Shown: positions 3,415-16,075, counted from the first letter of the stretch. The stretch is 35,472 nt of DNA from a virus (IMGVR_UViG_3300023181_000027:1-35472); one strand, 5' to 3'. Numbers and translations are program-made. Notes: a model not told the origin generated them from the letters alone.

Positions 3415-3552
3415 CTGTGTAGGCAGGATTCGAACCTGCATATAGCACTTGTCGGTCTTTGTATTATGCAATTAAACTCACACTTTACTCTCGACTTGCT
3501 TCCCTACGTCTATTTTTATTTAGATGTGTCTGCACCATTCCACCACTACACA
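3415..3552 (-). ncRNA. tRNA-like RNA B with about 70-nt structured insertion
   Basis: Acceptor TGTGTAG/CTACACA plus G73-C, D-arm GTG/CAC, T-arm GCAGG-TTCGAAT-CCTGC; 8-nt loop instead of an anticodon loop; insert with AGCA/TGCT and GTCG/CGAC stems. Confidence 0.65.
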
Positions 3553-3555
3553 GTG

Positions 3556-3662
3556 CTCACAAGGATAGATTCGAACTACCATTCCATTTTCCCGAGACAG
3601 GTAGTTAATGGATAACTATCACCATTACTGATGGGTTGCGTTTGCCGTTTCGCCACATGTGA
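3556..3662 (-). ncRNA. tRNA-like RNA A with non-canonical anticodon arm and expanded variable region
   Basis: Acceptor TCACATG/CTTGTGA plus G73-C, Leu/Ser-type D-arm GGCGAAACGGCAAACGC, T-arm GGTAG-TTCGAAT-CTATC. Confidence 0.62.
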
Positions 3663-4087: not shown

Positions 4088-4480
4088 TCATTCAATTATA
4101 AAATCCAACTTGACTCTCGAGACATTCTGTTTATAAGTGTAGTCTTCTGCGTATCCGATTCGTTTAAGAAAGCGCCAGTAATCACCACCCTTATAACGTG
4201 AGCTTACTTTGTCTTTATACCAGCAGATACACTCATCAACACTATCAAACTTCATTAACTTACCTTTTCTCCTCAATCCTAAGTAGTTGTTTTTACGGAT
4301 TGCGGGTTTGTACTTAAAGTTTGTACTTTCGTGTACTGCCTGTTGCAGTACGATCTTAGGATGCGGGATACCCGCTTTAACGATTTTATCATAAACCTGT
4401 TTCTGATTTACACGCTTGTTTTGTCCAATACACACAATGCTTAGCATCAGGAGTATTGTTAGTACCAATGTTTTCTTCAT
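4088..4480 (-). CDS. GH73/glucosaminidase-like peptidoglycan hydrolase with N-terminal signal peptide
   Basis: MKKTLVLTILLMLSIVCIG signal; QAVHES catalytic Glu, NNYLGL, GYAED..Y motifs. Confidence 0.75.
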   Translation of the reverse strand: MKKTLVLTILLMLSIVCIGQNKRVNQKQVYDKIVKAGIPHPKIVLQQAVHESTNFKYKPAIRKNNYLGLRRKGKLMKFDSVDECICWYKDKVSSRYKGGDYWRFLKRIGYAEDYTYKQNVSRVKLDFIIE

Positions 4481-4513
4481 TAATTACTTTTATGTTTACA
4501 TTCTGTTAATTAG

Positions 4514-4598
4514 TGGACGCGCGAGGAGTCGAACCTCGCATTATTCATATTTCAATTGAACTTCACAGTTCAATTCCCTCAGCCAGAGCGCCACGCCC
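4514..4598 (-). ncRNA. tRNA-like RNA G: Ala-identity acceptor with GNRA-capped helix instead of anticodon arm
   Basis: GGGCGTG/CGCGTCC with G3-U70, A73; T-arm CGAGG-TTCGACT-CCTCG; perfect AATTGAACT-GTGA-AGTTCAATT hairpin. Confidence 0.7.
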
Positions 4599-4652
4599 AT
4601 TAGGCTTTTAAGCCAGTACGCCTATACAGGTTTGGAAGCTGCATTTCGATTG

Positions 4653-4764
4653 TAAGTAAAAAGAGATTCGAACTCTCAATTTCAGCTATTCTCCTATCAC
4701 CCAGGTCTCTGATATTCACTGATGGCCCCTTATAGGCTGTATTTACCGATTCTACTATTTACTC
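4653..4764 (-). ncRNA. tRNA-like RNA F with long irregular helix replacing anticodon arm
   Basis: GAGTAAA/TTTACTT plus A73-C, D-arm GTA/TAC, T-arm GAGAG-TTCGAAT-CTCTT; central CAGC/GCTG and CCTAT/ATAGG. Confidence 0.62.
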
Positions 4765-4765
4765 G

Positions 4766-4885
4766 CGGAAGTGATCGGAATCGAACCGACACAGTACCAG
4801 GGACTTACATGGTCTACCAAAGTTATATCCGATTCGAACGGAGCCTCTCGCCAACAAGTAACTTCTACCATTAATGTACACTTCC
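4766..4885 (-). ncRNA. tRNA-like RNA E with a nested second T-arm module
   Basis: GGAAGTG/CACTTCC plus G73-C, terminal T-arm GTCGG-TTCGATT-CCGAT; internal AAGTTA/TAACTT stem enclosing TCCG-TTCGAAT-CGGA. Confidence 0.65.
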
Positions 4886-4889
4886 ATTG

Positions 4890-4962
4890 GGGTGAAGAGA
4901 GGATTCGAACCTCTGCCAATCATATCTTATACTACTGCACAACCAGCCATGCTCCATCACCC
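4890..4962 (-). ncRNA. tRNA-like RNA D: His-type G-1:C73 acceptor, degenerate anticodon arm
   Basis: G-GGTGATG/CTTCACC-C, D-arm GCAT/GTGC, T-arm AGAGG-TTCGAAT-CCTCT; anticodon stem poorly paired. Confidence 0.55.
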
Positions 4963-4968
4963 ATATAG

Positions 4969-5025
4969 TTGCAAGGGAAGGAATCGAACCTCCGCACATC
5001 CGAACTACCACTATTCTACCTTGCT
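4969..5025 (-). ncRNA. mini tRNA-like RNA C lacking the anticodon arm
   Basis: GCAAGG/CCTTGC, D-arm GAA-TAGTGGTAG-TTC, 8-nt linker, T-arm GGAGG-TTCGATT-CCTTC; 57 nt total. Confidence 0.68.
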
Positions 5026-5051
5026 ATTTGAGCTTTTACACTCAAACTTCT

Positions 5052-5240
5052 TTAACAAGACCAATCACAACTAGTCTGACCATAGGATGCGTATTCACAA
5101 CATCTACCATCAAATTCGTTTAGTTTTACTTGTCGTTCTTTCTTTTGTAAGCGTTTAACTTTACGTTTATACCTTCTCACTTGTATTCTACGTAAACCTT
5201 CAAGCTTGTACAAAGCTTCTATTTCTTTATTCTTTGCCAT
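5052..5240 (-). CDS. hypothetical basic protein
   Basis: ORF only. Confidence 0.5.
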   Translation of the reverse strand: MAKNKEIEALYKLEGLRRIQVRRYKRKVKRLQKKERQVKLNEFDGRCCEYASYGQTSCDWSC

Positions 5241-5428
5241 TTCAAGTCTTTCATTTTTAATGTTTCCAACATGTGTGTAATAGCCGCTTGGTTACAACCT
5301 CTCCAAACACCATCTTTACAAAGATACGTAAATTCTAATTGGATCTTACCATCTTTTCTGCTTTCTGTGTCTACTTCTACGGAAGATATGTCCTCGTTCA
5401 TATGGGTATCTTTCTTTAAATTGTGCAA
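5219..5428 (-). CDS. hypothetical protein
   Basis: ORF only; ends in TAG. Confidence 0.45.
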   Translation of the reverse strand: MHNLKKDTHMNEDISSVEVDTESRKDGKIQLEFTYLCKDGVWRGCNQAAITHMLETLKMKDLKWQRIKK

Positions 5429-8552: not shown

Positions 8553-8646
8553 TGGGGTGTTAGGTGGGCGACGACCCCACGTTGTCTCTAAAGCGTTTCT
8601 CCAGTTTCACAGACTGGCCCCGAACACCTCCACGGGTTGCTAACAC
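8553..8646 (-). tRNA. atypical tRNA-His(GTG)
   Basis: CCAGT-CT-GTG-AA-ACTGG, C73-CCA; 20-nt variable region, T-loop GTCGTCG, no encoded G-1. Confidence 0.75.
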
Positions 8647-9280: not shown

Positions 9281-10561
9281 TTATAAGTCTCCTATTTCTT
9301 TCATTTCTTCTTCATCGAACATTTCTTCTTCTGGATCTTCACCATCTCTCTTTTTAAGAGCGGCAATGATTTCAGCTTTACTGTTCTTTAATTTATCCCG
9401 CATTATTTGCTTAACCACCCATCTAAACGCCTCACCAATCGCTTGTTCTCTGTAACCTAAGTCCATCATATCAAACGAATCAACAGCTAACTCTTTCAAG
9501 GTTTTAGGATATAAACCGGCATTAAACTGGTTTACCACGCCACTTCTTAATTTAGAATAATGATCATGTATGTCCGTATGTTTAAAGAATGGAGATGTAA
9601 GCATCTCAGGATAAAGTCTAAGATTCTCGAACAATTTCACCCTAGCTACCCAAGGGGACCATACATTAATAGCTTGTAGTGCTTTTAATCTTCTAGTAGT
9701 AGTACTATCAACTTTCAATTGCTCAGCGATATGCTTACCTTGCCAGTAAGCTCCACGAGTAGCAACCCAAATAAGTTGAGCAAAATCATCAATAGGTGGT
9801 TGCTTTTTTAGTTGCTCTACAGTGATGTGTGAACCGTAACCGTTATCATATCTGAACACTGGCGTCCACATATCCATTCTGATTATTAACTCCAAGCCTC
9901 TGTTAGCTACACCTTTATCCACCATCTTCTGTAACTCAATAGTAACCCTCTCAGCAGAGATCTTCTCCAGTTTAGCTTTATGCTTTCTAATGAGGGCAAT
10001 CATTGGTGTATCGATAGTAAAATCAAAGCGGGCAGCAAATTGTACAGCTCTCAATATACGTAATGGATCATCAACGAAGGCCGCATCACTCACACTCTTT
10101 ATAAGCCTAGACTTTATATCAGCTTGCCCTTTGAAGGGATCGTGAATAATTATTCCACCAAACCAAGGAATCTCAACAGCAATAGCGTTCATGGTAAAAT
10201 CCCTTCTTGCAAGATCTTCTTTGATGCTCATAAATGGATCCACTATTATTTCAAAGTCAGTGTGCTTACCACCTTCTTTCTTCACGTCTTTACGAGGGAT
10301 TGCGATATCAATCTCTTCCCCTCCTTTAGCTTTAAACTTTATTATACCAAACGATTTACCAACTTGATCAACTTTACCAAAGTTACTAAGTAATGTAATT
10401 AACTTATCTAGTTCAATGTTTGCTATCAAGATATCCAAATCTTTAGATTCCTCCCCTAGGAAGTGATCCCTTACAGCGCCACCAACACAGTATACTTTAG
10501 CTTTTTCAACTTGTAAACTGTCGAAGAATGGCAGCCCTCTTACTTTTTCTATACACTTCAT
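9281..10561 (-). CDS. cca: CCA-adding tRNA nucleotidyltransferase (class II)
   Basis: VGGAVRD..DLDI, DLARRDFTMNAIA, DDPLRILRA..FAARF, ERV..EL motifs; start set at MKCIEK. Confidence 0.92.
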   Translation of the reverse strand: MKCIEKVRGLPFFDSLQVEKAKVYCVGGAVRDHFLGEESKDLDILIANIELDKLITLLSNFGKVDQVGKSFGIIKFKAKGGEEIDIAIPRKDVKKEGGKHTDFEIIVDPFMSIKEDLARRDFTMNAIAVEIPWFGGIIIHDPFKGQADIKSRLIKSVSDAAFVDDPLRILRAVQFAARFDFTIDTPMIALIRKHKAKLEKISAERVTIELQKMVDKGVANRGLELIIRMDMWTPVFRYDNGYGSHITVEQLKKQPPIDDFAQLIWVATRGAYWQGKHIAEQLKVDSTTTRRLKALQAINVWSPWVARVKLFENLRLYPEMLTSPFFKHTDIHDHYSKLRSGVVNQFNAGLYPKTLKELAVDSFDMMDLGYREQAIGEAFRWVVKQIMRDKLKNSKAEIIAALKKRDGEDPEEEMFDEEEMKEIGDL

Positions 10562-10764
10562 TTGCAATGACAATCTGTTATGCTGTAACCACAGTAACCA
10601 AAACATCTAAATGGACGATGACAGAATAAACTCTCGCCTTCACCGTCATGATTCACATGTTCTTGTCCAGTGGTTAGCCAGCGTTTAAATATTAACCTTC
10701 TATTAAAATAGACGAACAGTTGATTATGTACTATCTCCTTTGTGATCATGACATTAATCTCCAA
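10558..10764 (-). CDS. hypothetical protein
   Basis: ORF only. Confidence 0.55.
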   Translation of the reverse strand: MEINVMITKEIVHNQLFVYFNRRLIFKRWLTTGQEHVNHDGEGESLFCHRPFRCFGYCGYSITDCHCK

Positions 10765-15250: not shown

Positions 15251-15254
15251 TTTG

Positions 15255-15327
15255 CGGGGCTGTAGAGGTTCGAACTCTAGTTCACGGTGTTAGAGACCGC
15301 TGCCTTAACCAATTAGACGACAGCCCC
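15255..15327 (-). tRNA. amber suppressor tRNA (anticodon CTA)
   Basis: Perfect GGGGCTG/CAGCCCC, G73, GCGGT-CT-CTA-AC-ACCGT, TAGAG-TTCGAAC-CTCTA. Confidence 0.9.
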
Positions 15328-15736: not shown

Positions 15737-15843
15737 TGGACCCAAGAGGAATCGAACCTCTGATTCTAGTTGTTAGTCTTGAGGGAAAGGGGCTACCCAA
15801 TATATCGAAGACATCTAGCGTGCTACCTCTACACTATAGGTCC
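15737..15843 (-). ncRNA. tRNA-like RNA H with about 45-nt insertion in the anticodon arm
   Basis: GGACCTA/TGGGTCC plus A73, D-arm GTGT/GCAC, CTAG/CTAG stem extended by GTCTT/AAGAC, T-arm AGAGG-TTCGATT-CCTCT. Confidence 0.68.
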
Positions 15844-15987: not shown

Positions 15988-16075
15988 TGGGGAACAGTGG
16001 AATCGAACCACCATAGCCAATCTGGCGCCGAGTAACACCCCAGTGGAAATCACCAATTCTTTCCTTTGATACCCC
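15988..16075 (-). ncRNA. tRNA-like RNA I without a recognisable anticodon loop
   Basis: GGGGTAT/GTTCCCC plus A73, 5-bp D-stem GGAAA/TTTCC, T-arm GGTGG-TTCGATT-CCACT. Confidence 0.58.

Follow-up and report, generated by a model that had tools for sequence, protein, structure and literature searches.

The nearest precedents for the RNAs described here are RNAC and RNAD (species 1 and 2) of bacteriophage T4, which have tRNA-like ends and are matured by the tRNA-processing enzymes; we know of no protein partner for either of them. In tmRNA, SmpB stands in for the anticodon arm, and the smpB gene adjoins ssrA in many bacteria. In tRNA punctuation, as in mitochondrial transcripts and with the mascRNA of MALAT1, a non-decoding tRNA shape lets RNase P and RNase Z set the ends of neighbouring RNAs. 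The two T4 RNAs are small, stable and non-decoding, are co-transcribed within the phage tRNA cluster and have a role that is unexplained (PMC3014915). YrlA-type Y RNAs and Ro60 (Rsr) combine a tRNA-mimicking module with a dedicated protein (PMC4201824), and Ro60/Y RNA pairs are also found in some large phages (PMC7824862). Finally, tRNA-Leu can do without its anticodon stem-loop at a cost of only 2.5-fold in affinity for the Aquifex LeuRS, the key elements of such a minimalist tRNA-Leu being A73 and a core of U8-A14, G18-U55 and G19-C56 (PMC2377443).

The DNA analysed here, called the window in the following, has 35,472 nt and makes up the opening 35 kb of an IMG/VR phage record that measures 105 kb, has a G+C content of 39% and is estimated at about 50% completeness. 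On the minus strand of positions 4513-5025 it holds five tandem tRNA-shaped units, C, D, E, F and G (Table 1). Their number, strand and location, given already in the initial annotation, were confirmed by strand reading and by a scan for T arms with adjoining acceptor closure, and so were the short spacers with a single long one between F and G (6, 4, 1 and 54 nt, counted from N73). Acceptor pairing reaches 6/7 in C and D and 7/7 in E, F and G, the T stem is complete (5/5) in all five units, and the T loop is TTCGAnT throughout. The N73-C74 signature, which had been described as shared with genuine tRNAs, is indeed present in 5/5 units and in 25/25 of the tRNA genes and tRNA-like matches checked in the window. 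A U stands at -1, or at -2 before G-1, in four of the five units, and the U8-A14 pair is missing in D and G. Among the structural features of the Rfam tRNA family (RF00005), acceptor, T stem and T loop are kept in every unit. C lacks the anticodon arm with its 5-bp stem, 7-nt loop and usable anticodon, E, F and G have other structures in its place, and in D it is defective; not one normal arm was found in the five units, and each deviates in its own manner, just as the annotation had it. Standard tools classify the array only in part: C (36.0 bits) and D (34.8 bits) exceed the RF00005 gathering score of 29 bits, G (19.5 bits) stays below it, E and F are not reported, and ARAGORN calls just G, as tRNA-???. 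No promoter-like or terminator-like site was found on the minus strand between the units.

Table 1. Location and main characteristics of the array and of associated features in the window.
Feature	Position	Strand	Characteristics	Evidence or conservation
Glucosaminidase-domain protein gene	4088..4480	-	130 aa	Pfam PF01832, E = 9.7e-9; syntenic in L003, L006, L007
Conserved leader	4481..4513	-	CUAAUUAACAGA..., from position 74 of unit G to the glucosaminidase ATG	Four-phage alignment
Unit G	4513..4598	-	G3.U70, A73; 8-9 bp helix with GUGA cap for anticodon arm	ARAGORN tRNA-???
Small hairpin in F-G spacer	4603..4614	-	GGCU-UAAA-AGCC	Same hairpin in L003
Unit F	4652..4764	-	7/7 acceptor, 3-bp D stem with GG loop, 5/5 T arm	T-arm/acceptor scan
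Unit E	4765..4885	-	7/7 acceptor closure around two T arms; inner minihelix 4820-4864	T-arm/acceptor scan
Unit D	4889..4962	-	G-1:C73, G8/G14 for U8/A14, weak anticodon stem, loop AUAAGAU	Rfam tRNA 34.8 bits
Unit C	4968..5025	-	Arm-less tRNA-like RNA; acceptor, D arm, 8-nt linker, T arm, A73, C74	Rfam, R1, covariation
Hairpin between small-protein stop codon and unit C	5027..5046	-	UUUGAG-UGUAAAAG-CUCAAA	Folding z -4.9 vs shuffles
Small basic protein gene	5052..5240	-	62 aa	Conserved upstream partner of unit C; homologues before arm-less RNA
CCA-adding enzyme (phage) gene	9281..10606	-		Pfam PolyA_pol + PolyA_pol_RNAbd; PHROG tRNA nucleotidyltransferase 3.5e-56

The array is placed between the small basic protein gene and the glucosaminidase-domain gene, and 24 tRNA genes, all on the minus strand, lie on either side of it (2.0-20.4 kb, ARAGORN). 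Like T4 RNAC and RNAD, units C-G are thus non-decoding RNA genes inside a phage tRNA cluster; unlike in T4, where there are two single RNAs, five of them stand in tandem, and the 56-nt arm-less layout of C is different. As a further difference, a blastn search of the phage collection gave no sequence match. The phage CCA enzyme, by which the initial annotation had the units matured, is encoded among the tRNA genes, 4 kb from the array; the presence of the gene is a fact, and the units would be its putative substrates. Two further public assemblies, ERZ27228488 and SRR7968062, have exactly the same sequence over the array and 3-6 kb of its surroundings; the array is hence no assembly artefact. 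The identity over the compared region also means that these two assemblies offer no variation for testing covariation in D-G. Distant blastn of positions 4300-5300 against the phage collection yielded no match at the DNA level, nor did IMG/VR searches with single flanking proteins yield usable relatives. Relatives were reached via the CCA enzyme in the protein database (L003/L004, L006, L007 and L008; 39-52% protein identity), the CCA enzyme of the closest one being 52% identical. Common to them is the gene order ligase, tRNAs, CCA enzyme, glucosaminidase, HD_4 hydrolase. Their syntenic region further codes for a HisRS-like fragment (205 aa), a PTH2 peptidyl-tRNA hydrolase, an HD_4 hydrolase of the RelA/SpoT type, an RNA ligase and RlaP (tRNA-related genes at L003 7931-8548, L006 8757-9137 and L003 14586-15167) and is a dense tRNA maintenance island.

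Judged by its sequence relatives, unit C is a member of a real and conserved RNA family and not a decayed tRNA. Its body has 56 nt: an acceptor of 6 bp plus an A.A opposition at 1:72, a D arm GAAU/GUUC with the loop AGUGGUA, a linker of 8 nt in the position of the anticodon arm, and a perfect T arm (5/5). A strict search pattern, in which only D loop, linker end and T loop were fixed and the acceptor stem was left free, matched 4 IMG/VR records and 11 metagenome contigs and had 0 matches in 185,579 cellular genomes (one per bacterial or archaeal species). In these scans the family is confined to phage and metagenome contigs, of which about 20 carry a member. A looser arm-less pattern gave more than 120 matches in cellular genomes; most of those inspected were ordinary tRNA-Leu(GAG) genes, because their anticodon stem and long variable arm together fit the pattern, and no arm-less unit was among the inspected ones. 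The copy in L007 also has 56 nt; its 46-nt core is 98% identical to unit C, and its acceptor reads GCGGGG/CCCCGC versus GCAAGG/CCUUGC in C, which amounts to two compensatory pairs. Further arm-less copies were found in L006 and L008.

From 17 distinct sequences and 16 pairs a family alignment was made. In it, 97.1% of the pair cells form standard pairs, compared to 41-59% when the 3' partners were slid. Changes on both sides occur in 11/16 pairs, the observed covariation score was matched by 0/500 shuffles, and all six core acceptor pairs covary, though they had been free in the search pattern. Position 1:72 is unpaired in 8/17 sequences, position 73 is A in 16/17 and position 74 is C in 17/17. 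Across the alignment no variation is seen at U8, A14, G15 with C48, G18G19 and in the T loop; for the D-loop and T-loop positions this is partly by construction, since the search pattern had fixed them. A covariance model, R1, gives family members 54-81 bits and ordinary tRNAs at most 42. In the genome studied here unit C scores 75.3 bits and ordinary tRNAs at most 40.4. C has the complete layout of the model, that is acceptor, 4-bp D stem with AGUGGUA loop, linker of 7-10 nt ending in GC, T arm and A73-C74. R1 also found one copy each in three IMG/VR genomes of 107, 360 and 434 kb, which are 97-100% complete. Because the family is conserved and covarying, simple pseudogene decay is excluded for unit C. 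In two related huge phages a conserved non-coding stretch of about 130 nt lies downstream of the arm-less RNA (L037 ~2050-2200, L039 ~2070-2200), which has no Rfam match. A literature search with most subscription journals outside its reach turned up neither an arm-less tRNA-like RNA from phages nor the small protein, and the family is apparently undescribed.

The arm-less family resembles the minimalist tRNA-Leu in having acceptor, D arm, T arm and A73, and it keeps all of the key core elements; unlike unit C, the minimalist molecule is a synthetic class II derivative with a long variable arm. A73 and an intact elbow would fit the needs of LeuRS after deletion of the arm, from which follows a concrete charging prediction for the arm-less family.

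When the open reading frames around the arm-less RNAs were clustered, one shared neighbour emerged, located on the same strand and ending just upstream of the RNA. This gene, or its C-terminal part, is found upstream of the arm-less RNA at every locus with enough upstream DNA; in L020 the reading frame is interrupted upstream and the C-terminal part alone is intact. Counted from the stop codon, the RNA begins after 4-10 nt at most loci and after 26 nt at unit C. The association also holds in reverse: three out of three proteins chosen by profile search alone have an R1 match 5-10 nt past their stop codon, and two of these three RNAs lie outside the original DNA pattern. Unit C is in this manner genetically tied to the small protein gene; this gene lies outside the coordinates covered by the initial annotation, and the link had been missed there. 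The protein has an N-terminal helix with the pattern MAKxK..YKxEGxRRMxxRKxKR and a Cys-rich C-terminus that comes in several flavours across the homologues. Among 1.84 billion representatives, a profile search retrieved 82 clusters, all of 33-130 aa except for a repeat protein of 2580 aa with a weak partial match. Neither a Pfam family, SmpB included, nor a PHROG family matched the protein, and a few members show scattered weak zinc-ribbon matches. An AF2 model consists of a helix (residues 5-47) and a beta hairpin (mean pLDDT 83). A search of the ESM Atlas gave no usable match, and what Foldseek retrieved from the PDB were all spurious matches to long helices (E at least 4).

Unit C and the gene for this protein, predicted to combine a basic helix with a Cys-knuckle, would form a conserved two-gene module, with the RNA within a few bases of the gene. 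The arm-less RNA would then be either the RNA partner of the protein or a tRNA-like 3' appendage of its mRNA. As with tmRNA and SmpB, a small basic protein goes together with a tRNA-like top half that lacks the anticodon arm, and the small protein might accordingly bind the arm-less RNA and replace its anticodon arm. The resulting hybrid tRNA would be CCA-tailed, charged independently of an anticodon through A73 and the elbow in a LeuRS-like manner, and would work on the ribosome or pass on its amino acid. We regard this scheme as improbable; the analogy is attractive and rests on resemblance. Different from tmRNA, there is neither an mRNA-like reading frame nor are there pseudoknots, and unit C retains a full D arm, which the tRNA-like domain of tmRNA does not have. 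Should the scheme be correct, the hybrid would represent a new kind of particle, minimal, specific to phages and directed at translation. The combination of a tRNA-mimicking module and a dedicated protein is likewise reminiscent of YrlA and Ro60; unlike YrlA, the RNA of units C-G ends at the acceptor stem and has no Ro-binding helix. An identity with the Ro60/Y RNA system was considered and dismissed, as no TROVE gene (PF05731) is present in the 105-kb record (itself about 50% complete) and Rfam gave no YrlA match at E <=10.

At the other end of the array, unit G borders on the leader of the glucosaminidase gene. This leader is largely invariant among four phages (36 invariant columns overall), and in 4/4 of them it starts at position 74, right after the discriminator base of a tRNA-like unit. 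In all four phages the unit in this slot pairs well in acceptor and T arm, and its anticodon defect differs from phage to phage: a GNRA hairpin in the window, a 6-nt loop UAGACG in L003, a two-T-arm unit in L006 and a 15-nt linker in L007. In unit G, the helix is followed by an A/U-rich linker of 16 nt. The small hairpin in the F-G spacer (GGCUGAAAAGCC) also precedes the slot unit in L003. The UAGACG loop occurs at L003 11120-11192 and L006 14088-14159, identical in two diverged phages and with otherwise normal arms; the stem beneath it differs between the two yet still pairs, and the L006 copy is at another position.

A tRNA-shaped element at a fixed place before a conserved leader, whatever the state of its anticodon, points to transcript punctuation of the tRNA type. 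The 3' edge of unit G coincides with the start of the glucosaminidase mRNA leader, G would mark the processing site at which the 5' end of this mRNA is made, and it probably marks that end. Punctuation would suit the positions of both units, G preceding the conserved leader and C following a stop codon within a few bases. The precedents for these are eukaryotic or organellar, and punctuation alone leaves the sequence constancy of C unexplained. With the mascRNA model of Rfam, G gave a weak 18.7 bits, far under the threshold of 42.5. As in tmRNA, G carries the Ala identity pair G3.U70 together with A73, being the sole unit of the five with both; it reaches 8.1 bits with the Rfam tmRNA model versus a threshold of 47, and ARAGORN finds no tmRNA.

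Units D, E and F lie between these two points. Unit D has G-1 opposite C73 and an acceptor with 6/7 pairs, and its anticodon stem is paired at 4/5 positions, with two Watson-Crick pairs, two G.U pairs and one mismatch. As a possible working decoder with an odd anticodon arm, D scores above the Rfam tRNA threshold, has U33 and A37 in a 7-nt loop and might read CUU through AAG. For G, ARAGORN parses a 4-base anticodon, 'gtga', by which an 8-nt loop would read four bases. We find such decoding hardly credible. The anticodon stem of D is as irregular as just described and is combined with G8/G14, a His-type G-1:C73 goes along with a Leu anticodon whose A34 is of a kind rare in bacteria, the putative 8-nt loop of G closes to a GNRA tetraloop, and C, E and F offer no candidate loop at all.

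Unit F has an irregular helix of about 55 nt in the position of the anticodon arm. The two-T-arm layout of E directly follows the arm-less RNA also in L006 (14454-14548) and in L037 (1572-1662), the latter being, with L011, an IMG/VR phage. A spacing-limited two-T-arm pattern hit at least 120 IMG/VR stretches, and among 73 IMG/VR two-T-arm sites with both stems intact the outer closure was 7/7 in 27, compared to 8/73 in reversed or shuffled controls. R1 found zero arm-less members at 80 IMG/VR two-T-arm loci; therefore, the two classes are not generally linked.

It is here that the loss of function has to be considered. D, E and F, perhaps also G, could be dead tRNA genes or products of T-arm recombination in a dense tRNA cluster, kept only because a processable top half leaves the maturation of the long transcript undisturbed. 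For C this reading does not apply. In a local blastn-short comparison of D, E, F and G to all relatives and to their own genome, T-loop words alone matched, so that covariation, which the initial annotation had proposed to test in homologous loci, was obtained for C (11/16 pairs) and the other four are without a sequence homologue in the relatives. This absence is what one would expect of dead genes, and the same can be said of the cores of D and G, which deviate from tRNA, of the variability of the region from the module to the glucosaminidase gene among the relatives, and of E, which looks like one tRNA-like piece inserted into another. Moreover, D, E and F have no folding signal (z versus shuffles +0.6, 0.0 and +0.1, respectively): the anticodon-arm replacements had been called designed-looking, and for these three this found no support, as they fold no better than shuffled sequence. 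Neutral decay would, however, be oddly uneven if it left 12/12 acceptor and T pairs in E, F and G and 11/12 in D next to a wholly replaced anticodon region. A perfect GNRA hairpin of 8-9 bp in G (z = -3.65) is not expected from it either, nor are the recurrence of the two-T-arm layout behind the arm-less RNA in two phages and the excess of closed sites over controls. Taken together, we consider the dead-gene reading of D-F and perhaps G possible but rather doubtful. The argument against simple pseudogene decay that had been put forward for all five units thus stands for C, with its conserved and covarying family, and in part for G, of which the slot is conserved in four relatives with different anticodon defects.

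Several other odd tRNA-like genes were observed. Just upstream of an amber-suppressor tRNA(CUA) lie two of them (window 15738-15843 and 15989-16075), a pair that is conserved in L003 (4407-4517 and 4314-4401). The first, of 106-111 nt, has a long helix where the anticodon arm would be, and the second has 87 nt and a D stem of 5-6 bp with compensatory differences between phages (CGCGAA/UUCGCG versus GGAAA/UUUCC). A tRNA with the anticodon CUA (window 15254-15327; ARAGORN label Pyl) is conserved in L003, L006 and L007, and this phage group may recode TAG or read through it. Three tRNA-framed genes of 109-113 nt that lie outside the window (G000:C1 73827-73937, 74753-74865 and 79593-79701) have in common a hairpin inserted after the D arm (AGUGAnnnnnUCACUUA), one of them also having an Ala-type loop UUUGCAC, and additional long tRNA-framed units are located at G000:C1 75574-75708 and 84962-85045. 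A tRNA-His(GUG) of 94 nt (window 8553-8646) has a long extra region, the unusual T loop GUCGUCG and an encoded CCA, and was reported neither by ARAGORN nor by Rfam. Downstream of the glucosaminidase operon, two tRNA-framed units of 137 and 106 nt stand in tandem (window 3416-3552 and 3557-3662; units A and B of the initial annotation).

Considering all units together, we lean towards the view that they are five tRNA-framed, non-decoding RNAs that are processed like tRNAs, C belonging to a protein module, G serving as a mark and D-F being accessory or debris. The units would be transcribed along with the flanking genes in a long minus-strand transcript of the tRNA region and released by RNase P at the 5' end and by RNase Z or exonucleases after N73, to be completed by the phage CCA-adding enzyme. 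Selection would keep the acceptor/T helix and the elbow of D loop and T loop, and no anticodon, as it does in C and, we infer, in the rest. Since all five share the part of a tRNA that RNase P, RNase Z and the CCA enzyme recognise, tRNA-like maturation with the value residing in the top half is the most economical account; we infer processing, stability, CCA addition and protein binding of the units from their nucleotide sequence. D, E and F would be lineage-specific occupants of a variable region between the fixed points C and G, and may represent either accessory mimics of tRNA or leftovers of recombination that are tolerated on account of their continued processing; the observations fit working mimics and tolerated debris alike. 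Nothing tRNA-like follows the module of protein gene and arm-less RNA in most of the other contigs, and thus the five-unit array as such is not conserved.

An intact top half without an anticodon would also suit a decoy. Mature, CCA-tailed RNAs could soak up defence enzymes or factors that read the acceptor end or the elbow, for instance tail-cleaving or tail-modifying toxins, synthetases or EF-Tu, and so shield the real tRNAs. Acceptor identity marks that need no anticodon are present (G3.U70 with A73 in G, G-1:C73 in D, A73 in C and F), genes for tRNA repair or against toxins are near in this phage and its relatives (CCA enzyme, PTH2, RNA ligase, HD_4 hydrolase, RlaP), and tRNA tails are known targets of immunity (PMC12851939). 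Nevertheless, we hold decoys to be unlikely: the make-up of the array differs in every relative, a stoichiometric decoy would face competition from the real tRNAs, and the strict link of C to the small protein is not expected of a general sponge.

Maturation along the tRNA route, with distinct tasks for C and G, is thus the reading we favour. The record of non-decoding, tRNA-shaped RNAs inside clusters of phage tRNA genes goes back to T4 RNAC and RNAD, with their role unexplained, and the locus described here provides a sharper handle on them. The RNA family to which unit C belongs is a compact, strongly covarying tRNA core minus the anticodon arm, and through its pairing with a small protein, what was a vague 'tRNA-like RNA' becomes a two-component system open to cloning, pull-down and assay.
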